A DNA stretch of 64,000 nt from the IMG/VR virus record IMGVR_UViG_3300028887_000096, positions 19,562 through 83,561 of that record. The stretch is one strand, 5' to 3'. The translations under genes and the position numbers were made by a program. Every line of letters starts with the position of its first letter. The first letter of the stretch is position 1. Positions 6,033-46,733 of this stretch are shown here, one piece after another. The notes beneath the pieces are model-generated. The model saw only the letters and a list, made by a program, of their open reading frames with translations, did not search any database and was not told the DNA's origin. The DNA comes from a virus. Taxonomy: Duplodnaviria > Heunggongvirae > Uroviricota > Caudoviricetes.

Positions 6033-7937
6033 ATGGACTACAAGAGAATATATGACATCTTCGTTGCCGACAGAAAGGCACACCCGACTACGGAACTGTA
6101 TTCCAGCCTCCACCACATCATCCCGCTCGGGGACGGTGGCAAGGACTGCGAGGAGAACCTGGTTCGCCTTTCCATCCGCGACCACCAGTTCGCCCACAAA
6201 CTGATTGACCGCTTTACCGGGCGCAAGGCATGTCCCGAGTTCACCAGGTTTACTTCAAAGCGTCAGATTGCCGCAATGCAGAAGAACGGCATCGACCCGA
6301 AACGCGCAAAGCGTGCCAAGGCCGGTGTCGGAAAGTTCCGCCTGTGGCTGAATGATACGGCCAAGACCCTTGCCGATGACTTTTCCCAGCAGATCTGCGA
6401 AAGGGCCGCTGAGGCTAACCCGGGAATGTCCGTGGTTCCGTTCATTACCAAGCAGTCCTTCCCGATCTGGCTGTCCGCGCTTAACGGGCTGAGCAAGCAC
6501 TTCGTCGTCAGTACCCAGAGCGACGAAAACCAGGCGGTCGGCCCGGGCATCAAGATGAGGGCGGGCGAAGTCATCCATCTCGGGATGGAGAGCGAAATCG
6601 AGCTCGTGGTGAAGAATGTCGGGGAATATCTCAAAGGCAACCTCATGATGGCGATTACCGACGGCGTGGCCCGCGCATACGCATTTACCCGCGCCACCGA
6701 GAAGGACCGGGAAATGTTCATCAACACGGCCACCCGCATGATGCGCATTACCCTCGGCCAGCTGAAGGCCACTTACCGCGTAATCGAAATCCGCCATGTG
6801 TATGAAGTCGCCGACCGCTATGTCACCCGAGTGGTGAATGCCGCAATCATCGACCGCGGGGTGACCGAGTATATCGACATGCTCACCCATCCGGTCCTGA
6901 CGGAAAATGTTGATAAGGTGTTCGGAATGTTGGCAACCCTTGCTGACGAGGCTCCCGTCGATCCGGTCCTCGGTAACACGATGCACCTTATCGTAAAATA
7001 CGCGCTCGACAAGTATGTTGACCCGGGCTATTCGATGTCCGGCGACCTGCGCAAGGGCATCGTCTATTGCGCATGCAACGACCTTGCGAGAAAACTCGCA
7101 ACGAAAAAAGACGTACTCGCCACGCATGACCTGAATAAGCTCACGTTCCACGCATGGCGTGAGGTGTTCGGTGTCCTGTTCGGCAGCATCGCCGACGCAG
7201 AAAAGTCCGCGCCCGGCGTCCCGGACTTGCAGGCGGCATATCGCACCTGCACCGACGAAGGTCTCCATGACGACATCATGGCCGGCCTCCCGGTCGCCAA
7301 TGAGCGTATTACCGCATGTCTCGTCGGGATGGTGGCTGCGAAGCTGCGCCCGCATGTGGATGACGGGATGCTTACCCAGGAAGAGTTTGACTTTGCAATC
7401 GAACCGCGCAGGGTAATGTCTGTCGTCATGCCGGAACTGCAGACCTACACGAAGACGCTGAAAGATGCCAAGACCAGGCTCCCGCTTGACCAGTTTGCCA
7501 AGAAGTGCCTGTTCGGGTATGCAACGTCATATTCCCGCAAGATTATCCTCTACATGCTCGGCAAGGATGTGACCGAGGAGACCTATGGCCGCATTGCCGG
7601 TCTTGACGAGAAGTATATCACTGCCACGTTTACGGCGAAGTGCCGTCTCAATGTCGGCATGGTCACTGCAGCCGTCGAGCCCGGGGCATGTTTCCAGCTT
7701 CCGGTCCCGTTCCATGCGATGATCAAGAAGGCAATCGACGACATTAGCATGTTTACTCAGATTTCTAAGGCCAAGGCCATGCTTCTCAAATCGGAAATCT
7801 CCGCGGAACTCGGTAAGCGTATCATGGAAGACGTTTCCCTCCGTCGCCCGACGAGCGTCCAGTTCAACAATGTCTTTAAAGAAATCCGCCTGATTACCGC
7901 CGAGCATGTCCAGAAGGTTCTCGGGGGTGACAAATGA
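6033..7937 (+). CDS. Large protein with N-terminal HNH nuclease motif
   Basis: HHIIPLGDGGKDCEENLVRLSIRDHQFAH near the N-terminus, followed by an unknown domain of about 550 aa. Promoter motif 42 nt upstream. Confidence 0.7.
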   Translation: MDYKRIYDIFVADRKAHPTTELYSSLHHIIPLGDGGKDCEENLVRLSIRDHQFAHKLIDRFTGRKACPEFTRFTSKRQIAAMQKNGIDPKRAKRAKAGVGKFRLWLNDTAKTLADDFSQQICERAAEANPGMSVVPFITKQSFPIWLSALNGLSKHFVVSTQSDENQAVGPGIKMRAGEVIHLGMESEIELVVKNVGEYLKGNLMMAITDGVARAYAFTRATEKDREMFINTATRMMRITLGQLKATYRVIEIRHVYEVADRYVTRVVNAAIIDRGVTEYIDMLTHPVLTENVDKVFGMLATLADEAPVDPVLGNTMHLIVKYALDKYVDPGYSMSGDLRKGIVYCACNDLARKLATKKDVLATHDLNKLTFHAWREVFGVLFGSIADAEKSAPGVPDLQAAYRTCTDEGLHDDIMAGLPVANERITACLVGMVAAKLRPHVDDGMLTQEEFDFAIEPRRVMSVVMPELQTYTKTLKDAKTRLPLDQFAKKCLFGYATSYSRKIILYMLGKDVTEETYGRIAGLDEKYITATFTAKCRLNVGMVTAAVEPGACFQLPVPFHAMIKKAIDDISMFTQISKAKAMLLKSEISAELGKRIMEDVSLRRPTSVQFNNVFKEIRLITAEHVQKVLGGDK

Positions 7938-11415: not shown

Positions 11416-11670
11416 TTCGAGTAAGGCTAAGAAGAAGAGGTTATCACCCGGTCAGGCCACTTTCGGCATAGCATGCGAAATGACGGCTGGCATTGCTGGA
11501 TGCCAAGCGTTCATTCGAGAGATATGCTGAAAATAGTTGCTTCATGGGTTTTTCCTTTTCTGCCATTAAGTTTAGCAATTTATTTTTCGTCCGGCAAGGG
11601 TTTTTGACCCCATTTTGAAGAAATAATAAATAAATAAGTTTTGTGTAAGTTTCCCGTAAGAAAATGACCC

Positions 11671-24971: not shown

Positions 24972-25098
24972 AATCCCCGATTTTGTGCACATTTGTGCAC
25001 TAACCTTGGCACCGTTTTTATTATAAACAATGACTACCCGCCGACGGAAACGGTCCTCCCGCACCGCCGGCCCAACTTCAACCTAAAGGATTCCTACA

Positions 25099-27668
25099 TG
25101 GAAGAATTACAGGACACGAAAATGTCGGAGCGCTCGTTCTTGAAGCAGGTCAAGAAGAAGGATGGCCCCCGGCAGAAGTTTGATCCCCTTAAAATCGAAC
25201 GCTGCATCACCCACGCACTCAATGACGCGAAGTGCACGCTCCCCCAGGAAAAAATCGAGGAAATGACCGGTGATGTGGTTGATTTGCTGTATGACTTGAA
25301 GCAGAAGTGCGTGAGCAATGAATCGGTTGCCATCGCTGTAAAGAAAGTTTTACGCGAAGTCAGCATGCCCGCCTATGATGCCTATGTCATCTTCCGCAAC
25401 AACCGCGACCGCGAACGCACCCTCCAGTCCCCCCTTATCAAGACCGTCCGCGAAATCAAGCATGCCGAGTTGCAGAGCTCCAATACCCTCCGCGACAACG
25501 CGAACGAGGCTGGCGGCACCCCGGCCGGCATGTTCGGCAAGATCGCCGGCGAAACCAACAAGATGTATAACCTGCTCGACAATGTGAGCAGGAAGTATGC
25601 GGAAGAACACACCAACGGCTACCTCCACATCCACGACCTCAACATGTATGACCTGACCTTCAACTGCCTCTTTGCCCCGGTAGGCAAGAAGTTGAGGACA
25701 GGCTTCGATTCCGGTACCGGCTTCCAGCGTCCGGCACAGACCATCCAGAGTGCTGCCGCGCTTACCGCCGTGATTCTCCAGTTGCAGTCCAACCAGCAAT
25801 ACGGCGGCATCGCCTGCGACAACTTCGATTTCGAGCTCGCCCCGTTCGTGGACCGTTCCTTCCGCAGGAACCTTGCCATCGAACTGAATGCGATGGCCGA
25901 ATATCGGGAAGAGGATGAGAACCTCGCCGAATATCGCACGCTCCCCGAAGAGTCCGACGACATCGAGAAGACTGTCAAGCGTATCGCGAAGGTGCTCGGC
26001 AAGGCCAATGTGTCCATGAACCAGCCGAGGAAGAAGCTCTATTGCAGTTTCCCGAAGAAGTGCGTCGACCGCGCATGGCTCTACACCGATGCCGATACGC
26101 ATCAGGCGATGGAGGCCCTTGTCCACAACTTGAACTCCTTGCAGTCTCGCTCTGGAAACCAAGTTCCGTTCTCGTCGTTGAACTTTGGCCTTGATACTTC
26201 CAACTGCGGACGAATGGTCAGCAAGAACCTCATGCGTGCCCAGTATGAGGGCATGGGCGACGGCCTGACCGCCATCTTCCCGATCCTCATCTTCAAGCTC
26301 ATGAAGGGTTATACCAAGAACCCGACCGACCCGAACTACGACCTTTACGAACAGGCCGTCGAATGTCTGGCCCGCCGTTTCTACCCGAACTTCGTGTCGG
26401 TGGACAGCACCTTCAACAAGCCCTATGTGAAGTACCGGACCAAGGAAATCGAACTCGCCGATGGGTTGCGCAACATCAAGCTCCGCGGAAAGGATGAGGG
26501 TTTCGCTGAATACCACGGGATCATCGAACGCTCCGAATGCCCGGAATATGAATACGAGGTGGAGCCGGGCGAATACTGGGAAATCGTCGAATACGATGAA
26601 AAGAAGCTCTCCCTTCGCAAGCTGATCGAGAACACCACCATTGCGACGATGGGATGCCGCACCCGTGTCATCGGCAATGTCAACGGCCCGGAACAGACTA
26701 CCGGCCGTGGCAACTTTGCCTTCCATACGATGAACCTCCCGCGCCTTGCCATCGAATCCCATATCGAGAAGGACAGTACCGACGAACGCATCGCACGCTT
26801 CTACGAGAAGCTCGACGCATTGCTCGACGATGCCAAGGAAAGCCTTGTTGAACGCTTTAACCTCGTGTGCCAGAAGACCTACGAGCGCTATCCGTTCACG
26901 ATGCAGGAAGGTTTGTACCTCACTTCCGATGACAAGAAGCATGAACTGTCCGATACCATCGCCGAGGTGATGAAGCAGTCCACGCTCTCCATCGGCTATA
27001 TCGGCATCGCCGAGACGATCAACCTCCTTACCGGCAAGATTTACGGTGTCGATCATGAGGTGGATGGACTTGCGGTGGCCATCGTGAAGCACATCCGTGA
27101 CTTCTGCGACGCTACCCAGAAGAAGACCCACATGAACTGGTCCTGCTTCGCCACCCCGGCAGAAGCGGTCGCGGGCCGGTTCGCCACCATCGACGCCAAC
27201 AAGTTCGCCGACAACAAGAAACTTGCCGATGTGAACCTTGAACGCATCTTCGGAAAGGGCTACTACACCAATTCCCACATGATGGACTTCTCTCTCGATG
27301 TCTCCCTCGACGAGAAGATCAAGGTGGAAGCCCCGTTCCATGCCCTCACCAATGCCGGGCATATATTCTACTACAAGTTGAACGGCGACTTGACGAAGAA
27401 CATCCCGGCAGTGAAGGCTGCCATCGACGCCATGTATGACGGCAACCTTGGGTACTTCACCGTCACGATGGATTCGGACGACTGTCTCAAGTGCGGCTAC
27501 CATGGCATCATCGACAATGTATGCCCGAAGTGCGGCTGCAAGGATGAACGCTATTTCGTCCGTGTCAGGCGAATTACCGGATATTTAACCGGTTCACCGC
27601 GGAAGAGTATTCTGGATGCTTGGTGCGATGGAAAGAAGAAGGAGCTCATCGATCGGCACAATATCTAG
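25099..27668 (+). CDS. nrdD: Anaerobic ribonucleoside-triphosphate reductase NrdD
   Basis: Class III RNR features. C-terminal CPKCGC zinc ribbon and glycyl-radical motif RRITGYLTG. Start reassigned to MEELQDTK, because the ORF-track start is an upstream extension. Confidence 0.8.
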
Positions 27669-27781: not shown

Positions 27782-29692
27782 ATGGAGCTCAATTTCATTT
27801 GTAAAATTTGTAATAAGCCGTTTGGCAAAACCGGGTTGACTAATCACATCCAGCGCACCCATAAAATGTCATATAAGGAGTATTATGACACTTTCATTGA
27901 TGGAAGCGAGCACCTGTGTCCCTATTGCGGCAAAGAGTGTGGGTTTGTTAGCCATTATGGTTATTACGAAACTTGTTGTGATCCCACATGTGTCAGAAAG
28001 GCGCAGCACCGGACAATGTATGCTCGATATGGTAAGGCCTGTCGCCACCCAGACAAAATTAAGGCAAAACCAATTATTGACTATCCATACCATTGCGAAA
28101 TATGTGGTCAAGGCACAAAGAATTTGCCGATGCTGAATAGGCATCTGAAAAAATATCACCCTGATGTAGATATTGAAAACTACTATAATACATATCTGGG
28201 AGTTAAACCACAAGTATGTGAGGTATGCGGTGGCCGAGCAAAGTGGTTGGGAACGCATTACCATAATGTTTGTGGATGCCCGGAGTGTACTAGCGTATTG
28301 CGTGGCAAGAATAATGCAATGAATAACCCGGTCTACCGCAAAAAAGCGAGGGATGCGCTAATTGCATTGCCGGACGAAAAAAAGCGGGCAATTCGCGAAA
28401 AGGTGGAGCAAACTTGCTTGGCACGCTTTGGGTATCGGCATAATTGGAGTTCCCCCGAACTGCGTGAGGCTGGCCAGTACGCCACATGCAAGGCACTATA
28501 TGGCGATCGGAATTACCATAATGTTGCGCAAATGCAGAATACTTGCACAGAACGGTTTGGCGTTAGGTCGTTTTCACAGACTGTTTCGTTTCAATCAAAA
28601 ATGTGGCATAAATTCAAGGTGGGTGAAATTACATTTGACTCGTCGTATGAGTATGCACTATATAATTTCTTGAATGCCGCTAAATTGCCATTTATTTATC
28701 ATCCGAAGGAATCTATTCGTTATGAATATGCCGGTAAAGAACACATGTTCTTTCCAGATTTCAAAATAAATGGCCATTTTTACGAGGTTAAGGGCGAGCA
28801 CCTGTATAAATATATGCAGACCCCGAACACTAAGGAGCATGCGAAACTGGAGTGCATTTTAGCAAACAATATCACACTTATAACAAAATGCGATGTATTT
28901 GCGTTTATTGATGCCGTATTTGGAAAATCGTTGAGTATTGATGCTATCGTTGAGCAATGCTTGCATACCGAGTTCCCGGGCAATGCGAAATGGCCTGCAT
29001 CACATCCCATTTGGGATTGCTTTGTTCCCGGGCATACTGATCCCCGCACTGCATGGGCAGACCCGGTGTTGGTTCGTAAAGGTGTTCTTAATCTAGTAAA
29101 GACATTGAACGACGCTCTAATTTCTGGAAAATATCCGGCATTCTGCACAAGATATATCAAATCTCTGCTGAGTGGAAATTACTTTGATAAGGTCCTGGAT
29201 AGGTTTACTATTGCAAAGATCGCGCCGAAAGTAACTGCATTACACGAAACCGAACTGTTGCGAATTATTGAGGAATCCGGTGTAGATTTAAGCCCCGGTG
29301 TGTATTGCCCAATGGCTGGGTTTGGCGGCATAGTTCGCGGTGTCAGACGGTGGTTTGAAACTCGCGGTATGCGCGGAGATATTGAGGCCTATGACATCAA
29401 TGACCGGTTCTGTAATTGGTATGGGTGGACTAGGCGTGATGTTTTGGCACAGGTGGTGCACACGAACAAGGTGGTTGTTGTTTGCCCTCCGTTTGGAAAG
29501 CAGTATGAGCACTGGAAGGGAACACCGGACGAAATGTCGGATATTACATTTAAACAATGGGTTTCCTTGATTAAGGAGCATGTCATTGCACCGAATTACA
29601 TATTTATTGGCCCAGAAGTCGATGACGGCAAGAACCGTTGTGGCCTATTTAAACGAAAGGTTGGAATTTCATTATATAAGGATGGTATATGA
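27782..29692 (+). CDS. Multi-zinc-finger protein with C-terminal DNA-methyltransferase-like motifs; low-GC insertion between nrdD and nrdG
   Basis: C2H2-like units (CKICNKPFGKTGLTNHIQRTH, CEICGQGTKNLPMLNRHLKKYH). C-terminal MAGFGGIVRG (motif I-like) and VVVCPPFG (motif IV-like). GC is about 40%, against about 60% in the flanks. Own promoter motif and terminator. Confidence 0.6.
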   Translation: MELNFICKICNKPFGKTGLTNHIQRTHKMSYKEYYDTFIDGSEHLCPYCGKECGFVSHYGYYETCCDPTCVRKAQHRTMYARYGKACRHPDKIKAKPIIDYPYHCEICGQGTKNLPMLNRHLKKYHPDVDIENYYNTYLGVKPQVCEVCGGRAKWLGTHYHNVCGCPECTSVLRGKNNAMNNPVYRKKARDALIALPDEKKRAIREKVEQTCLARFGYRHNWSSPELREAGQYATCKALYGDRNYHNVAQMQNTCTERFGVRSFSQTVSFQSKMWHKFKVGEITFDSSYEYALYNFLNAAKLPFIYHPKESIRYEYAGKEHMFFPDFKINGHFYEVKGEHLYKYMQTPNTKEHAKLECILANNITLITKCDVFAFIDAVFGKSLSIDAIVEQCLHTEFPGNAKWPASHPIWDCFVPGHTDPRTAWADPVLVRKGVLNLVKTLNDALISGKYPAFCTRYIKSLLSGNYFDKVLDRFTIAKIAPKVTALHETELLRIIEESGVDLSPGVYCPMAGFGGIVRGVRRWFETRGMRGDIEAYDINDRFCNWYGWTRRDVLAQVVHTNKVVVVCPPFGKQYEHWKGTPDEMSDITFKQWVSLIKEHVIAPNYIFIGPEVDDGKNRCGLFKRKVGISLYKDGI

Positions 29693-30222
29693 ACTTTTCA
29701 AAGATTGATCCGATGTCCATAGTGGACGGCGAAGGCTGCCGCGTGACGCTGTTCGTGTCAGGCTGCCGGAACCATTGTCCCGGGTGCTTCAACGAGGCTA
29801 CGTGGGACTTCTCATACGGCAAGGAGTTCACCGAAATCGAGGCTAACGAGATTATCGAGGCATGCCGGAAGCCCTATATCGCGGGCATTACAGTCCTCGG
29901 CGGCGAACCGATGGAGGAGGAGAACCAGCCGGCCGTGCTCGAACTTCTCAGGAAGTTCAGGGCGGAGCTCCCGGAGAAGAACATCTGGCTCTATACCGGC
30001 TACGTGATGGAGCGCGACCTCTATCCGGGCGGAAGGAAGCATGTGCCTGGCGTTACCGGGGAAATCCTGAAACTGGCCGACGTGCTCGTTGACGGCCCGT
30101 TCATCCAACAAAAACGGGACCTCGCACTGAGGTTCCGTGGAAGTTCCAACCAGCGCATCCTCCGCAAGAAGGATGGCCGCTTTGTGGAAGACGCTACCAG
30201 TTCGATTCCGACTCGAGTCTGA
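29689..30222 (+). CDS. nrdG: Anaerobic RNR activating protein NrdG (radical SAM)
   Basis: GCRNHCPGC cluster. Small glycyl-radical activase architecture. Confidence 0.8.
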   Translation: MNFSKIDPMSIVDGEGCRVTLFVSGCRNHCPGCFNEATWDFSYGKEFTEIEANEIIEACRKPYIAGITVLGGEPMEEENQPAVLELLRKFRAELPEKNIWLYTGYVMERDLYPGGRKHVPGVTGEILKLADVLVDGPFIQQKRDLALRFRGSSNQRILRKKDGRFVEDATSSIPTRV

Positions 30223-33010: not shown

Positions 33011-33020
33011 GAATTTGAAA

Positions 33021-33824
33021 ATGTCCTATTCGCTGTTTTTCGGTGACTGTCTGGAGGAGATGAAGAAGCTCGCCCCCAAGTCGGTCGATATGATCCTATG
33101 TGACCTCCCCTACGGCGTCACGCACAACCCGCACGACAAGCGTATTGCCTTCGCGCCCCTATGGGAACAGTATGAACGCGTCATCAAGGACGACGGGGCA
33201 ATCGTCCTGTTCGCCCAGGGCCTGTTCTACGTTGACCTGGTGCAGTCCAAGCGCAAGCTGTTCCGCTACGACCTGGTCTGGAACAAGAAACTCGTCACCG
33301 GGTTCCTGAACGCCAAGCGCATGCCTCTCCGCTCCCACGAGCAGCTCGCCGTGTTCTACAAGACCATGCCGAAGTTCCACCCGCAGTTCCATGAAGGGAA
33401 GCCCCTCCACGGCCGCGGCAAGTCCTACATGTCTAAGGACATGGTGAACAACAACTACGGCAAGTTCAAGGCCACGGACGACGTCCGCAAGGGTAGCACC
33501 CAGAAATACCCGGTGTCCATCATCGACATCCCGAAACCGCACCCGTCCAAGTCCGAACACCGCACGGAAAAGCCCGTGGAACTTCTTTCCTGGCTTATCC
33601 GTTCCTACACGGAACCGGGCGATGTCGTCCTTGACAACTGCATGGGATGCGGCAGTACAGGCCTTGCCGCGCTGAAGGAAGGACGCACGTTCATCGGCAT
33701 GGAAATCGACAAGGAATACTTCGAGATTGCCTGGACACGCATTACCAAGCTGGCTGCCGACATGAACAAGGGCGACTTCCACGATGGCATCAAGACTGTC
33801 TTCAAGGAGGAAGCCGATGAGTAG
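33021..33824 (+). CDS. DNA methyltransferase, beta-class (motif IV DLPYG before motif I CMGCGSTG)
   Basis: Motif order IV then I, characteristic of N4C/N6A beta-class methyltransferases. ATG at 33021. Confidence 0.7.
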   Translation: MSYSLFFGDCLEEMKKLAPKSVDMILCDLPYGVTHNPHDKRIAFAPLWEQYERVIKDDGAIVLFAQGLFYVDLVQSKRKLFRYDLVWNKKLVTGFLNAKRMPLRSHEQLAVFYKTMPKFHPQFHEGKPLHGRGKSYMSKDMVNNNYGKFKATDDVRKGSTQKYPVSIIDIPKPHPSKSEHRTEKPVELLSWLIRSYTEPGDVVLDNCMGCGSTGLAALKEGRTFIGMEIDKEYFEIAWTRITKLAADMNKGDFHDGIKTVFKEEADE

Positions 33825-39150: not shown

Positions 39151-39669
39151 ATGTCAAACGAAAATGAAACCGTTGTTGTCCCGCTCTCCAAGATGCTCGT
39201 AACCGAAAAGAAGCCGTATGAAGGCGAACTACAACCACCGCCGTTCGCTTCCGACTGGCCGTTCCTCCCGAGCGAAATCCCGGGAGTCGACGTTTCCAAC
39301 GCATCGACGGATATTACTCCCGAAATGGACATCAAGGCTCTCGCCATGGCCGCACTCCGTATCCAGCGCGATGCGAAGCGCTATGCCGCGATCAATACCA
39401 ACAAGGGCACCGGCACCTATTCGTCGAAGCTCCTTGCCAAGAACATCGCGTGCGCCATCAAGGCGGCAATCAACGCCAGTTACGTCGGCAAGAACCTCGG
39501 CGACACTCTCGGCGACGCGTATTACCTGGAGAACGTCCGTAACTCCTATGTCGACCCGGGCTGCCTTTCCAAGGACGAACGTGTTGCCAAGGCAATCGAG
39601 CAGGCCAGGGGTCTCCGTCTCCGTTTCATCGAAGAAATTATCGAAGCCGGCAGCAAAGGCAGAATGTAA
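39151..39669 (+). CDS. Hypothetical protein
   Basis: Promoter motif at 39122-39136. Confidence 0.6.
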   Translation: MSNENETVVVPLSKMLVTEKKPYEGELQPPPFASDWPFLPSEIPGVDVSNASTDITPEMDIKALAMAALRIQRDAKRYAAINTNKGTGTYSSKLLAKNIACAIKAAINASYVGKNLGDTLGDAYYLENVRNSYVDPGCLSKDERVAKAIEQARGLRLRFIEEIIEAGSKGRM

Positions 39670-41690
39670 TGTCCAAGAACCGTAATTTACGCGAGGCGAA
39701 GACTGCCAAGAACGACGAGTTCTACACCAGTTACAGCGACGTCTCCCACGAGATGAAGGCGCTGTTCGAACGCGACCCCGGCTTCTTCGCCAACCGCACC
39801 GTCCTGTGTCCGTGCAACGACCTTGAACACCCGGGGTTCCGCGACTTCTTCATCGACAACTTCCAGGGACTGGGCCTCCGCAGGCTCACCTGTACCAGCT
39901 ATGTCCCTGGCCATCGCGGCCACGCGGAGACGGTTTCTCTCGGACGGGACGGCAATATTAAGGTTGCCCGATGGGTGCTGGATGGAGACGGGGACTTCCG
40001 TTCCCCGGAAATCACGAAGTTCATGCAGCATTCCGACCTGGTCGTGACCAACCCCCCTTTCAGCTGTTTCTCTTCAGATACCGAGGTGCTCACCGACGGA
40101 GGCTGGAAGCTGTTTACCGCCGTCAAGCCGGGCGACCTCGTCCTCAGCATGGACCCGGCAACCCGCAAGGTCGAATACGCCCGCATCGTTCGTTTCTACG
40201 ACACCCCGTACAAGGGCGAGCTGTTCCACTTCAAGAAGTCCGGCATGGACCTCATGGTGACCGGAAACCACCGCATGATCTGCAACGAGCGCAAGGACCT
40301 GTTCTGCCGCGCTGACGAGGTGGTCCCCCACTACCACTCGGTGCCTATCCGCGGGCTGGAATACGACTGGAGCGGCATCCACGAGGAGTTCTTCACGCTC
40401 CCGAGCGTCATGCAGAACGAACGCTACACCCACAAGGACATCACCGTCCCGGAAAAGAAAATCCCGATGGGCGACTGGCTGGAGTTCCTCGGGTTCTGGC
40501 TTGCCGACGGCTGCGTCCGCTTCGGCAACAACGTGAACGGCAATCCCCGCTACACGATCAGCATCAAGCAGAACGAGGACAACGAGAAGTACGTCATCGA
40601 CCTTTACGCCAAGATCGGCTTTCCGTGCAAGGTGGAACGGTCCAGCAAGACCAGGAACCACAACTACACCGTGTACAGCAAGCAGCTGTGGACCTACCTC
40701 GCGAAGTTCGGCAAGGGCATCGAGAAGAAGTTCCCGACGGAAGTCCTCTACATGGAACCGGCCTACATGGCCCGCTTCCTCGACGGCTACATGAAGGGCA
40801 ACTCCCATCTCTCTCACATCGGCGGGAAGGTGAGCCAGGCAATCGGCAGTACCGCCCCGAAGCTGTGCGAGGGCCTGCAGGAGCTCATCCTGAAAGTGCG
40901 CGGCGTGCTCGTGCAGTTCATCCAGCGCAAGTCCAAGGGAAACCCCTACTGGATGGCGAACTGGGCAATCGAGACCAAGAAGCGCAACACGGACTACCCG
41001 GTGCCGGAGAAGGTCCAGTATGACGGGACCGTGCACTGCCTGGAACTCGACCGCAACCATACCATGCTCGTCCGCAGGAACGGCCTGGCGACCTGGTGCG
41101 GGAACTGCTTCCGGGACTTCGTGGACTGGGTCGACGGCGCCGACAGGGACTTCTATGTCATCGGCAACAAGAACTGCGTCAACTACAACGAGGTGTTCCG
41201 CAAGCTGCGCTCCGGCAGGATCCAGCTCGGCATCACCTCCCCGGACGAGTTCGGGACGCCGGACGGCGAGACCGAGAAGGTCACCGGCCTTTGTCGGTGG
41301 TACACGAACATGTTCGTCCCCCGGACGGAAGACGAGCGAGGCATCTGTCTGCGGGCCACCTACGACCCGGCGAAATACCCCAAGTTCGAGAACTTCGACG
41401 CGATCAACGTCGACAGGGTTTCCGACATCCCGAAGGACTACTACGGGGTGATGGGCGTCCCGATTACGTTCTTCGACCATTTCGACCCGAAGCAGTTCGA
41501 GGTCCTTGGCCGGAGCGGGGACACCGCGTGGGTATTCGGCGAGTGCGAGTTCTTTACGCCCCCGCCGGAGGAACGGCAGAAGGCGTACAAGGCCTACTAC
41601 AAGAACTGGCGGGTGCAGAACAGCTACCTGCTCGACGAGAACGGGATGCCGAAGTGCATCTATTACAGAGTTTTCATAAGGAGAAGATGA
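39669..41690 (+). CDS. N6-adenine DNA methyltransferase interrupted by an intein
   Basis: N-extein ends ...DLVVTNPPFS (motif IV). The intein runs from CFSSDTEVLTDGGW to ...NGLATWCGN. The C-extein resumes at CFRDF. Confidence 0.7.
   Translation: MSKNRNLREAKTAKNDEFYTSYSDVSHEMKALFERDPGFFANRTVLCPCNDLEHPGFRDFFIDNFQGLGLRRLTCTSYVPGHRGHAETVSLGRDGNIKVARWVLDGDGDFRSPEITKFMQHSDLVVTNPPFSCFSSDTEVLTDGGWKLFTAVKPGDLVLSMDPATRKVEYARIVRFYDTPYKGELFHFKKSGMDLMVTGNHRMICNERKDLFCRADEVVPHYHSVPIRGLEYDWSGIHEEFFTLPSVMQNERYTHKDITVPEKKIPMGDWLEFLGFWLADGCVRFGNNVNGNPRYTISIKQNEDNEKYVIDLYAKIGFPCKVERSSKTRNHNYTVYSKQLWTYLAKFGKGIEKKFPTEVLYMEPAYMARFLDGYMKGNSHLSHIGGKVSQAIGSTAPKLCEGLQELILKVRGVLVQFIQRKSKGNPYWMANWAIETKKRNTDYPVPEKVQYDGTVHCLELDRNHTMLVRRNGLATWCGNCFRDFVDWVDGADRDFYVIGNKNCVNYNEVFRKLRSGRIQLGITSPDEFGTPDGETEKVTGLCRWYTNMFVPRTEDERGICLRATYDPAKYPKFENFDAINVDRVSDIPKDYYGVMGVPITFFDHFDPKQFEVLGRSGDTAWVFGECEFFTPPPEERQKAYKAYYKNWRVQNSYLLDENGMPKCIYYRVFIRRR
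40065..41105 (+). mobile_element. LAGLIDADG-type intein (about 347 aa) inside the methyltransferase
   Basis: Hint block A C-x-x-x-T-x-V-L-T-x-x-G. Two LAGLIDADG-like motifs (EFLGFWLADGCV, ARFLDGYMKGNSH). C-terminal VHCLELDRNHTMLV...N followed by a +1 Cys. Confidence 0.65.
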
Positions 41691-45892: not shown

Positions 45893-45963
45893 GCTTCTAT
45901 ATGCTAATGGTAGACGAGCGGACTCTTAATCCGTGGGTTCTGGTTCGAGTCCAGATAGGAGCA
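45893..45963 (+). tRNA. tRNA-Lys(CTT), isotype tentative
   Basis: Loop CTCTTAA, T-arm TCTGGTTCGAGTCCAGA. Confidence 0.55.
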
Positions 45964-45970
45964 CTAACAT

Positions 45971-46043
45971 TCCGGCGTAGCTCAGTTGGTAGAGCGGCCC
46001 CTTCATACGGGGTTGGTCGCAGGTTCGAGCCCTGCCACCGGGA
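45971..46043 (+). tRNA. tRNA-Met(CAT)
   Basis: D-arm GCTCAGTTGGTAGAGC, loop TTCATAC, T-arm GCAGGTTCGAGCCCTGC. Confidence 0.7.
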
Positions 46044-46057
46044 CTAACAATCAACTT

Positions 46058-46131
46058 CGATGCGTGGTGTAATTGGTTAGCACGCCGCTCTGATAAGGCG
46101 GTAGTTGTTGGTTCGAGTCCAGCCGTATCGA
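46058..46131 (+). tRNA. tRNA-Ile(GAT)
   Basis: Loop CTGATAA, T-arm GTTGGTTCGAGTCCAGC. Confidence 0.65.
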
Positions 46132-46185
46132 CTAAGGAGTAAGAATATGAACAGACGAAAACGTAATACCTCGCGAATTTGATTC

Positions 46186-46258
46186 ACGGGTGTGGCGAAA
46201 TTGGTATCGCAATAGACTTTTAATCTATGGGCTGCGGGTTCGATCCCCGTCACCCGTA
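46186..46258 (+). tRNA. tRNA-Lys(TTT)
   Basis: Anticodon arm ATAGA-CTTTTAA-TCTAT, T-arm GCGGGTTCGATCCCCGT. Confidence 0.75.
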
Positions 46259-46263
46259 TAACT

Positions 46264-46337
46264 GGGGCCATAGTTCAGTTGGATAGAACGCCGGCTTGTC
46301 ACGCCGGAAATCGCGGGTTCGAGCCCCGCTGGTCCCG
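46264..46337 (+). tRNA. tRNA-Asp(GTC)
   Basis: Anticodon arm CCGGC-TTGTCAC-GCCGG. Confidence 0.8.
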
Positions 46338-46341
46338 CTAC

Positions 46342-46415
46342 GGTGCCGTAGCTCAGTTGGACAGAGCAGCCGTCTTCTAAACGGCCGGTCGAATGTTCGA
46401 CTCATTCCGGCATCA
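46342..46415 (+). tRNA. tRNA-Arg(TCT)
   Basis: Anticodon arm GCCGT-CTTCTAA-ACGGC. Confidence 0.75.
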
Positions 46416-46426
46416 CGCTTTTTTCG

Positions 46427-46499
46427 GCGTATAGCGCAGTTGGTAGCGCACATGCTTCGGGAGCATGGGGTCGCTGGTTCGAGTCCAGCTACGCCGACT
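46427..46499 (+). tRNA. tRNA-Pro(CGG)
   Basis: Anticodon arm CATGC-TTCGGGA-GCATG. Confidence 0.75.
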
Positions 46500-46509
46500 A
46501 GACTTTCCG

Positions 46510-46582
46510 GGGTGTAGCTCAGATGGTAGAGCGCCTGCTTTGGGAGCAGGATGTCGCAGGTTCGAGCCCTGCTACCCCGATA
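46510..46582 (+). tRNA. tRNA-Pro(TGG)
   Basis: Anticodon arm CCTGC-TTTGGGA-GCAGG. Confidence 0.75.
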
Positions 46583-46585
46583 TGC

Positions 46586-46658
46586 CGTCGTAGCTCAGTT
46601 GGTAGAGCAGCGCACCTGTAATGCGCCGGTCGCTGGTTCGAGGCCGGCCGACGGCTTA
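46586..46658 (+). tRNA. tRNA-Thr(TGT), with C33
   Basis: Anticodon arm GCGCA-CCTGTAA-TGCGC. Position 33 is C, which is unusual. Confidence 0.6.
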
Positions 46659-46661
46659 TGC

Positions 46662-46733
46662 CGGGTTAGCTCAGTGGTAGAGCAGGGCTTTCGTAAAGCT
46701 CAGGTCGCAGGTTCGAGCCCTGCACCCGGCTCT
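46662..46733 (+). tRNA. tRNA-Thr(CGT)
   Basis: Anticodon arm GGGCT-TTCGTAA-AGCTC. Confidence 0.7.

Follow-up and report, generated by a model that had tools for sequence, protein, structure and literature searches.

A probable class 1 intein with a LAGLIDADG homing endonuclease, inserted directly behind the catalytic motif of an EcoRI-family DNA methyltransferase of a large phage

In the 64,000-nucleotide stretch of phage DNA analyzed here (the window), an ORF of 673 codons encodes a DNA methyltransferase that is split by an insert of 347 aa. We consider it highly probable (roughly 0.9) that this insert is an intein of canonical (class 1) architecture that harbors a LAGLIDADG homing endonuclease. 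Its host protein, probably an orphan, is an N6-adenine methyltransferase of the EcoRI family encoded by a large phage, and the insertion separates Ser132 from the helix downstream of motif IV (Table 1). The case is clean yet fairly ordinary: such insertions are common in metagenomes, and this type of selfish element is already known from other phage methylases.

Table 1. Predicted features of the intein-containing methyltransferase gene; positions are those of the window
Feature	Position	Strand	Basis
Precursor ORF, 673 aa, 78.1 kDa (N-extein, intein, C-extein and stop)	39669..41690	+	ORF list; Pfam
N-extein, aa 1-132, N-terminal half of predicted EcoRI-family N6-adenine methyltransferase, ends ...DLVVTNPPFS	39669..40064	+	Pfam PF13651
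Motif IV, catalytic tetrapeptide N128-P-P-F131	40050..40061	+	alignment A1
Predicted intein, 347 aa, aa 133-479, 40.1 kDa	40065..41105	+	absence from homologues, residue conservation, AF2 model, profile
Predicted LAGLIDADG homing-endonuclease core, ~aa 267-433, two alpha-beta-beta-alpha-beta-beta-alpha halves	40467..40967	+	model secondary structure; Foldseek; Pfam
LAGLIDADG motif 1, DWLEFLGFWLADG, aa 269-281, catalytic Asp280	40473..40511	+	Asp in 91/92 relatives
LAGLIDADG motif 2, FLDGYMKGNS, aa 370-379, Asn378 at catalytic position	40776..40805	+	residue comparison
C-extein, aa 480-673, C-terminal methyltransferase half, opens at +1 nucleophile Cys480 (CFRDFVDWV...)	41106..41687	+	Pfam PF13651

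The unspliced ORF matches the Pfam profile EcoRI_methylase (PF13651) in split stretches (E=4.5e-68); the N-extein matches this profile by itself (E=3.2e-31; aa 6-80 and following), and aa 481-672 of the C-extein align with profile positions 151-344 (E=2.9e-37). After splicing in silico, the protein becomes a full-length member of the family (E=3.9e-75), with the score increasing from 230.5 to 253.7 bits (cut-off 26.4) and a single contiguous match that spans the junction (aa 99-325 aligned to profile positions 116-344). A preliminary description of this DNA, made from the letters alone, had proposed that an intein splits an adenine methyltransferase right after motif IV and that the methyltransferase frame resumes past the insert; the ORF, the junctions and the assignment of both flanks to PF13651 bear this out, as does the contiguous, higher-scoring match obtained after removal of the insert. 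The insertion point lies after S132, one residue past the catalytic NPPF; N128, P129, P130 and S132 are invariant in alignment A1, and F131 is conserved in at least 90%. The host protein can be assigned to the EcoRI family of N6-adenine DNA methyltransferases, with methylation of adenine at N6 predicted at the level of the family. No restriction endonuclease was detected among the genes neighboring this ORF, which fits an orphan phage methylase, and an anti-restriction role may be proposed for the intein-split enzyme. A single-sequence search of PDB sequences with the spliced extein returned chance matches alone (PDE10A at E ~0.1). The same phage encodes a second, uninterrupted methyltransferase (33015-33824).

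The junctions read ...DLVVTNPPFS(132) / C133 FSSDTEVLT ... RRNGLATWCGN479 / C480 FRDFVDWV..., with the insert running from an initial Cys to a terminal WCGN and a further Cys next to it on the C-terminal side, as had been noted from the translation. The same intein allele with the same junctions is present in at least 91 other protein clusters, and 90 of these 91 share the pattern NPPFS/C...W[CS]GN/C, with Ser at the +1 position in the remaining one. Alignment of the exteins with intein-free homologues, the comparison suggested in the preliminary description, revealed 121 proteins that lack the insert and are continuous at this site; NPPFS-LFREF is found across the site in 118 of the 121, with Leu at the equivalent of +1. 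Among them, the 326-aa protein of L002 (a 253-kb viral contig from IMG/VR) is collinear with, and 88-90% identical to, the predicted spliced product and reads NPPFS-CFREF at the junction; its DNA flanks are 90% (N-extein side) and 89% identical to those in the window, and the empty site is represented at the DNA level by GTGACCAACCCCCCTTTCAGC directly followed by TGTTTCCGGGAATTCGTGGAC. A nucleotide search of 50,697 phage records with the gene yielded no match, and in a protein search of the same records none was found to carry this allele, the matches being either methyltransferases devoid of an intein or proteins of unrelated kinds that contain related inteins. In further methyltransferase families, related inteins likewise occupy motif IV, behind (N/S)PP(F/Y), and one free-standing relative, which has lost the splicing residues and retained the endonuclease residues, adjoins an uninterrupted methyltransferase. 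The earlier assessment of methyltransferase insertions as less common therefore holds for the curated literature and not for metagenomes, where this exact allele is frequent.

These comparisons make it extremely improbable that the ~350 aa belong permanently to this methyltransferase subfamily, as an integral or accessory domain (for instance a DNA-recognition module) that is never removed. Such a domain would account for the more than 90 clusters in which insert and host gene are conserved together and for the purifying selection on the insert, and the free-standing relative implies that the fold can function without splicing. However, the insert would then disrupt the loop that bears the catalytic NPPF, homologues that are continuous at the site include one with ~90% identity, and it is precisely the splicing residues that show 99-100% conservation (Cys1, the Thr/His pair of block B, the terminal Asn and the Cys at +1); neither would an integral domain give rise to inteins with 99% identity within exteins with 54% identity (see below). 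The two observations regarded in the preliminary description as incompatible with an intein, namely presence of the insert as an integral domain in homologous methyltransferases and lack of the junction residues, are both contradicted by the data: 121 homologues are without the insert, and Cys1, the terminal Asn and Cys+1 are invariant or nearly so.

We conclude that the insert is most likely an intein, and mapped its splicing blocks to C133 (Cys1), T198/H201 (block B), C457/H464 (block F) and W476-C477-G478-N479 (block G). Of the 92 methyltransferase inteins compared, all possess the position-1 nucleophile C133, the block B Thr T198 and the C-terminal Asn N479, whereas the block B His H201 and the +1 Cys are each found in 91 (with a single Ser at +1). 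Two positions, again in 92 of 92, carry other residues than expected, namely Gly478 instead of the penultimate His and Cys457 instead of Asp at block F position 4 (F:4). In class 1 inteins, a His at block G position 6 (the penultimate residue) and an Asp at F:4 are the rule without being strictly required. With Gly and Cys at these positions, both the assistance to Asn cyclization and the coordination of the steps would be non-canonical. Variation of the penultimate His, including replacement by Gly, has been noted for phage inteins (PMC5050341, PMC9957025, bioRxiv 10.1101/2025.01.02.630785), and splicing despite a penultimate Gly is established for phage inteins such as the Bethlehem RDF intein (PMC5050341).

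The same combination of residues characterizes a large clade of inteins, most of them from phages or metagenomes (at E<=1e-3 the clade has 7716 representatives, and at E<=1e-30 it has 228). Among 139 related inteins of this wider clade, Cys is found at A:1 in 137 and Gly at the penultimate position in 129; F:4 is occupied by Cys in 117, Asp in 12, Ser in 6, Gly in 3 and Ala in 1. The resulting signature, Cys1, F:4 Cys, G:5 Cys/Ser and penultimate Gly (...VYC[LV]x[LV]xxNH...RRNGxxxW[CS]GN/[SCT]), mixes class 1 and class 3 hallmarks. Class 3 inteins are defined by the lack of a position-1 nucleophile together with the Trp(B:12)-Cys(F:4)-Thr(G:5) triad (PMC2807308). Those characterized (mycobacteriophage Bethlehem DnaB, MchDnaB1; PMC2807308, PMC7664689) share F:4 Cys and the phage association with the window intein, which unlike them starts with Cys and has Met instead of Trp at B:12 and Cys instead of Thr at G:5; on these grounds a class 3 mechanism, prompted by F:4 Cys, was discarded as the main reading. 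A related reading, in which splicing is class 3-like or redox-gated through Cys457, acting as the first or relay nucleophile or as the disulfide partner of Cys133, Cys477 or Cys480, appears unlikely. It draws on F:4 Cys as a class 3 hallmark where standard inteins usually have Asp (PMC2807308), on the presence of this Cys in 92/92 methyltransferase inteins and 117/139 of the wider clade, on the four cysteines grouped at the predicted active site, on the apparent anaerobic setting of the phage and on the precedent of a class 3 intein that senses oxidative stress (PMC6195587). The remaining class 3 markers are absent, however (with G:5 being Cys/Ser, not Thr), and 16% of the wider clade have another residue at F:4 (Asp, Ser, Gly or Ala); given that Cys1 is retained in 137 of the 139 inteins while F:4 varies, it is Cys1 that looks obligatory, which supports the class 1 assignment.

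Based on the established class 1 pathway and on the residues present, splicing of the window protein can be predicted to proceed as follows. The 78-kDa precursor would be unable to form the catalytic loop; through Cys133, the Ser132-Cys133 bond would undergo an N-S acyl shift, aided by Thr198 and His201 of block B, and the thioester would be handed to Cys480; cyclization of Asn479 would free the 40-kDa intein, and a final S-N shift would yield a 38-kDa methyltransferase reading NPPFS-CFRDF. For homing, the endonuclease of this intein family would cut intein-free alleles at the coding sequence of NPPFS/LFRE[FY], and repair would copy the intein in.

Family models are of limited help in recognizing this element. 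On the window sequence, Intein_splicing (Pfam; 16.9-18.9 bits vs 35.8), Hint (19 bits vs 29.7) and TIGR01445 (NCBIfam; 18.1 bits vs 24.5) all score below their curated cut-offs, and NCBIfam and PHROGs searches with the full protein gave at most weak, sub-threshold intein or endonuclease matches; precomputed matches to PF14890 exist for several relatives. The intein call is accordingly grounded in anatomy, comparative data and the predicted fold rather than in a family model. In Foldseek searches, the AF2 model of the intein (pLDDT 84.3) has its best matches among homing-endonuclease-associated inteins, namely TliVMA (7qsu; 4e-18), PhoVMA, PI-SceI, PI-TkoII and PI-PfuI, and the predicted HINT fold is matched by solved inteins with E=4e-18 to 1e-10 and by the Ssp DnaB mini-intein with 8e-6. 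The architecture of TliVMA and PhoVMA (7qsu, 7qss, 7qst), PI-SceI (1vde), PI-PfuI (1dq3) and PI-TkoII/PI-PkoII (2cw7), a HINT domain interrupted by a double-LAGLIDADG endonuclease, is the same as that predicted here (Foldseek E 4e-18 to 6e-12), at only 10-16% identity; the window intein differs from these archaeal and yeast inteins in its smaller size (347 aa) and penultimate Gly. The family profile also matches PI-PkoII (4e-5), which has Asp at F:4 where the window intein has Cys, and TliVMA at the sequence level. The closest solved sequence relative of the N-terminal splicing lobe is the AceL NrdHF-1-1 intein (6zgq; E=1.2e-3 with the single sequence, 1.7e-9 with the profile), which shares with it TEV.T..G and the block B NHRM, and which is a 165-aa mini-intein in another host protein (ribonucleotide-reductase-related NrdHF, by its name).

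The endonuclease core of the model resembles I-DmoI (Foldseek ~1e-6), and LAGLIDADG_3 (Pfam) scores 23.1 bits on the isolated intein, above the cut-off of 22.5; the two LAGLIDADG-like motifs recognized previously could both be located (Table 1). The acidic residue of the first helix, Asp280, is present; the second catalytic position, which is Asp in 87 of 92 relatives, is occupied in the window by Asn378 (codon AAC, 40800-40802), as it is in P0001, L001, L003, P0003 and P0016. By analogy with other LAGLIDADG enzymes, this replacement probably leaves the endonuclease of the window copy crippled, or at least not fully active, a point that the preliminary description did not raise.

Elsewhere in the family, mobility is apparent: in 261 of 2926 pairs, similarity between the inteins exceeds that between the exteins by over 15 points, and the 99% identical inteins of P0040 and P0071 reside in methyltransferases with 54% identity, which points to recent homing. 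In the window lineage, the intein/extein identities are 0.98/0.96 and 0.69/0.66, and GC3 is 0.90 for the intein and for the C-extein in the window; these sequence comparisons indicate that the intein and its host gene have co-diverged by vertical descent. The sister allele of L002 lacks the intein and retains the +1 Cys, whereas the other empty alleles have Leu, and in the extein tree, an approximate one built by NJ and carrying no support values, it is placed within the intein-containing alleles (90% and 64% identical to it, vs <=56% for Leu alleles). One Cys codon and this tree together suggest precise loss of the intein in L002. With co-divergence, Asn378 and this loss in a sister phage allele, the element in the window lineage looks to be past its mobile phase.

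Degeneration could have gone further, leaving a dead remnant that no longer splices and a methyltransferase that is a disrupted pseudogene; the likely inactivating Asp-to-Asn change, the absence of the penultimate His and the availability of the second, uninterrupted methyltransferase would be in line with this scenario, which we nevertheless consider quite improbable. The splicing residues are all intact, Gly478 and Cys457 being the norm in a large, clearly mobile clade, and the ORF is open across 2 kb. Moreover, dN/dS is 0.07-0.17 for the intein and exteins alike in comparison with two close relatives (for the intein, 0.10 vs L001 and 0.07 vs L003, from few substitutions), which is suggestive of purifying selection on the intein. 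An intein that still splices, probably with an impaired endonuclease, is the preferred reading.

Descriptions of inteins in phage DNA methylases, of both the N6_N4_Mtase and C5 types, date back to 2016 (PMC5050341, PMC9957025, bioRxiv 10.1101/2025.01.02.630785). The inteins of actinobacteriophage methylases (DNMT-1/2 in N6_N4_Mtase, PF01555, and C5; Kelley et al. 2016, PMC5050341; Gosselin et al. 2023, PMC9957025; bioRxiv 10.1101/2025.01.02.630785) likewise bear LAGLIDADG endonucleases and reside in orphan phage methyltransferases; their distribution over homologues is patchy, and there is evidence that they have moved horizontally from one divergent methylase to another. The window intein differs from them in its host family (EcoRI_methylase, PF13651), in its site one residue past NPPF and in the hosts of its allele, which are large uncultivated phages rather than actinophages. 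Neither a link between PF13651 and inteins nor an insertion at this site was found in the literature searched, where the Jug-phage and huge-phage papers that mention inteins do not mention methyltransferases.

The window intein leaves the current understanding of inteins unaltered; it adds to the list of intein targets the PF13651 family and an insertion point directly behind the catalytic NPPF. Together with the related inteins behind (N/S)PP(F/Y) elsewhere, it identifies motif IV of amino-methyltransferases as a recurrent landing site. For one allele, the relatives document the homing cycle with unusual completeness, from recent invasion (99%/54%) through vertical residence and sporadic loss of an endonuclease catalytic residue to an empty allele that retains the +1 Cys of the intein and to a free-standing derivative whose neighbor is an uninterrupted methyltransferase. 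The curated Hint and intein models overlook the clade on many sequences, which calls for caution in annotation, and for protein engineering the clade supplies inteins with penultimate Gly and F:4 Cys. Should the F:4 Cys be functional, as a relay nucleophile or a redox-sensitive disulfide gate, which we regard as doubtful, production of the methyltransferase would be conditional in an anaerobe-infecting phage.

The phage encodes nrdD and nrdG and hence appears to come from an anaerobic setting. A two-stretch Pfam match of the 891-aa NrdD ORF (24993-27668) raised the suspicion of a second intein; this candidate was rejected, since the translation contains no intein junctions or blocks, and the surplus length of the ORF is probably explained by an over-extended TTG start and ordinary insertions.

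Translation of the precursor frame fixes the insert exactly and bears out the preliminary description, which had placed an insert of about 347 aa, starting with Cys and ending in ...WCGN before another Cys, in an adenine DNA methyltransferase. With a slash marking the splice junction here and below, the N-terminal boundary reads ...SDLVVTNPPFS(132) / C(133)FSSDTEVLTDGGWK and the C-terminal boundary HCLELDRNHTMLVRRNGLATWCGN(479) / C(480)FRDFVDWV..., that is, Cys is the first residue of the insert, Gly-Asn are the last two, and Cys follows immediately. Both flanks match the Pfam profile EcoRI_methylase (PF13651; E=4.5e-68 for the whole protein, 3.2e-31 and 2.9e-37 for the flanks queried separately), and the C-terminal piece, aa 480-672, aligns with profile positions 150-344. 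Curated Hint, intein and LAGLIDADG models gave only sub-cut-off scores on the full protein; the isolated insert scored 23.1 bits against LAGLIDADG_3, narrowly above the cut-off of 22.5.

Features of the window discussed in the text
Feature	Position (nt)	Strand	Details
634-aa ORF	6033-7937	+	matches to PHROG homing-endonuclease families over the first ~65 residues (phrog_655, 1.6e-14)
nrdD ORF	24993-27668	+	891 aa; mechanical call, TTG start
636-aa ORF between nrdD and nrdG	27782-29692	+	DUF7487 and PHROG homing-endonuclease matches
nrdG	29689-30222		
Second, uninterrupted methyltransferase	33015-33824	+	N6_N4_Mtase, E=1.8e-28
Methyltransferase precursor ORF	39669-41690	+	673 aa, single uninterrupted frame
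Intein insert	40065-41105	+	aa 133-479, exactly 347 aa
Second LAGLIDADG catalytic acid position	40800-40802	+	Asn378, codon AAC

Four independent lines of evidence, drawn from sequence comparison and structure modelling, agree in identifying the insert as a LAGLIDADG intein that splits the methyltransferase right after motif IV, as had been proposed, and not as an integral domain of the enzyme. First, a search of 5.8 billion proteins yielded approximately 100 clusters of 600-750 aa that share the insert, along with shorter homologs that lack it. In the 91 relatives with readable junctions, these read NPPFS / C[YFH]S.DTEV and W[CS]GN / C (with / S in one exception), and the 121 intein-free homologs are continuous over the site, with a seamless NPP[FY]S-L in 118 and I, M and C at the junction in one each. 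Second, the protein spliced in silico gives one Pfam match spanning the junction (aa 99-325 to profile positions 116-344) and scores 253.7 bits, up from 230.5. Third, the AlphaFold2 model of the full precursor (mean pLDDT 84.3, from 73 aligned sequences) retrieves from the PDB, as the best Foldseek matches, inteins associated with homing endonucleases, namely TliVMA (7qsu, E=4e-18), 7qss, PhoVMA (7qst), PI-SceI (1vde/1jva/1ef0), PI-TkoII (2cw7) and PI-PfuI (1dq3), followed by I-DmoI, which matches the endonuclease core, and mini-inteins. By sequence, the methyltransferase-intein profile matched the AceL NrdHF intein (6zgq, 1.7e-9), PI-PkoII (4e-5) and TliVMA (5e-4).

The fourth line comes from a close relative whose site is empty: the 253-kb IMG/VR contig UViG_3300028591_000075 (L002), which encodes a 326-aa protein (cluster P0267) that is collinear with the predicted spliced product and 88-90% identical to it, with the junction NPPFS-CFREF. 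The window DNA reads ...CCTTTCAGC / TGTTTCTCT... at the N-terminal junction and ...TGCGGGAAC / TGCTTCCGGGAC at the C-terminal one, the empty site reads ...CCTTTCAGC / TGTTTCCGGGAA, and the flanks share 90% and 89% identity with those of the window. This is the only one of the 121 intein-free alleles with Cys in place of Leu, and its closest relatives carry the intein (90% identity to the window and the L001 protein P0001, 64% to P0002 and P0003, compared to at most 56% to Leu alleles); the simplest reading is a precise secondary loss of the intein, with the +1 Cys retained. The three intein-containing alleles compared all have TGTTTC at the start of the intein and TGCTTC at that of the C-extein, and the empty site reads TGTTTC-CGG, which is compatible, on the weak basis of one synonymous base, with loss by deletion between these 6-bp repeats. 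At L002:6385-6435, the empty site reads ...TTCAGC / TGTTTCCGGGAATTCGTG, where the codons for the conserved Arg-Glu-Phe immediately past the insertion point contain an EcoRI site, GAATTC (GACTTC in the window). This is probably a coincidence; it would be relevant if the targets methylated by the enzyme included GAATTC-like sequences within its homing site.

Among 92 aligned inteins of this allele, the junction residues are present almost without exception: Cys1 and the terminal Asn (N479) in all 92, and the +1 Cys in 91. Also conserved are the block B Thr (92; T198) and His (91; H201), the first LAGLIDADG Asp (91; D280), Cys at F:4 (92; C457), the block F His (83; H464) and, in block G, Trp (91; W476), Cys or Ser (C477) and Gly (92; G478). 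In contrast to textbook class 1 inteins, the penultimate residue is Gly rather than His and F:4 is Cys rather than Asp, opposite the Asp of VYDLSVE in PI-PkoII. Standard inteins are described as having 'usually Asp' at F:4, and class 3 inteins as having Cys there (PMC2807308), but the window intein lacks the remaining class 3 markers, with Cys at position 1, Met at B:12 and Cys at G:5. A HMMER search of the full library with the intein as query recovered 7716 representatives at E<=1e-3 (228 at E<=1e-30). Across 139 full-length relatives, which reside in many different host proteins other than this one, Cys at A:1 (137), His at B:10 (139), Gly at G:6 (129) and Asn at G:7 (137) are nearly invariant, and F:4 is Cys in 117, Asp in 12, Ser in six, Gly in three and Ala in one. 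Given that Cys1 is the constant nucleophile and F:4 is replaceable, we assign the window intein, from these alignments, to predicted class 1 splicing, with F:4 and penultimate residues that are non-canonical but typical of the clade. Phage inteins with a penultimate Gly splice well, for example, that of the Bethlehem RDF (PMC5050341).

In the model, the intein lies between the strand 124-127 (LVVT) with NPPFS and the helix 481-490 (FRDFVDWVDG), which precedes the strand 494-500. The motif IV loop is thus 347 residues away from the rest of the fold, and the precursor would be expected to be inactive before splicing. The +1 Cys stands where intein-free enzymes have Leu, so this position tolerates the change.

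Across the family, inteins are more than 15 points more similar than the respective exteins in 261 of 2926 pairs (in the extreme pair, P0040 and P0071, 99% against 54% identity), and alleles with and without the intein are intermixed on an approximate NJ tree from a biased sample, where parsimony requires seven changes or more. Such discordant histories bear the signature of ongoing homing. The window lineage looks different from the family, with parallel intein and extein identities (0.98/0.96 to P0001, 0.69/0.66 to P0002 and 0.69/0.64 to P0003). GC3 is 0.90 in the intein and C-extein alike, and dN/dS values, from small counts, against L001 (a 436-kb contig) and L003, both 92-95% identical, are 0.10 and 0.07 in the intein, compared to 0.16 and 0.17 in the exteins. 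LAGLIDADG enzymes employ one metal-binding acid from each helix. At the second catalytic position, the window shares Asn with L001/P0001 and L003, and P0003 and P0016 have Asn independently; P0071 carries Tyr there, and the remaining 87, P0002 among them, carry Asp. Because of Asn378, the window endonuclease probably either acts as a nickase or is inactive.

Inteins of the same clade are located directly after motif IV in other methyltransferases, with junctions including TNPPF[NA] / C, TNPPY[SK] / C, ITNPPF / C and TSPPY[YWF] / C; among these hosts, P0168, P0189 and P0214 are N6_N4_Mtase proteins. Related W[SC]GN / S inteins are found in the gp50 'methylase' of EBPR siphovirus 2, about 45 residues past DPPY, and in Prevotella phage Lak-A1. 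The free-standing protein P0123 (349 aa) shares 42% identity with the window intein and retains both LAGLIDADG Asp residues but has Ser at position 1, Pro for the block B Thr, Gly at F:4 and Val followed by a stop for the terminal Asn. Its gene starts 15 nt 3' of an intact intein-free EcoRI-family methyltransferase with the junction NPPFS-LFTPY (L007:1308-3386, a Logan SRR11482319 contig), and it looks like a former intein turned free-standing homing endonuclease beside its old host gene. A similar free-standing form, P0121, occurs in another context in L006. Metagenomic giants of 2,200-3,700 aa (P0122, P0133, P0134, P0138, P0156 and P0220) contain two to five same-clade inteins each (Cys1, VYC, W[CS]GN).

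LAGLIDADG inteins in phage DNA methylases are established, in actinophage N6_N4_Mtase and C5 enzymes (PMC5050341, PMC9957025, bioRxiv 10.1101/2025.01.02.630785). Our literature search found no paper linking PF13651 to inteins, and the allele is missing from 50,697 deposited phage genomes; hence this is a new intein allele of a well-known kind, new in both its host family and its insertion site. Its database relatives are unnamed or 'hypothetical protein'. Uncultivated phages carry the allele in abundance, and apart from the clade-wide non-canonical F:4 and penultimate signature its mechanism is ordinary; it is a tidy worked example of the homing cycle that holds little surprise for specialists.

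The window appears to derive from a very large phage; its relatives come from IMG/VR viral contigs and from contigs 323-436 kb long, and it also encodes RtcB, an exonuclease, NrdD, NrdG and free-standing homing-endonuclease-like genes. N6_N4 methyltransferase genes also lie near the EcoRI-family gene in L002 (7785-8435), L008 (the contig of P0004) and L009, and thus these phages tend to carry the two methyltransferases together. Among the neighbors of the EcoRI-family gene, no restriction endonuclease was detected, and the gene is best read as an orphan, presumably with an anti-restriction function.

The TTG start of nrdD lies well 5' of the ATP-cone, which opens at about aa 52, and the true start is probably a Met codon at about aa 36-44. 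No intein was detected in the window NrdD ORF, although other huge phages frequently have this gene interrupted (PMC12880540). In the close relative L001, nrdG is instead directly preceded by a TnpB/Cas12f-like ORF (OrfB_IS605), and the sequence is homologous to the window only from 29700 onward. Given these two different occupants, the slot between the nrd genes seems to act as a hotspot for mobile genes of different kinds. The remainder of the 634-aa ORF has no family match. BLAST comparison of L001 and L003 with the window gave short secondary matches, 72-81% identical, among 45940-46716 (region 45900-46720), and an inverted match to 11567-11669, suggesting that this phage has a family of dispersed or tandem repeats.
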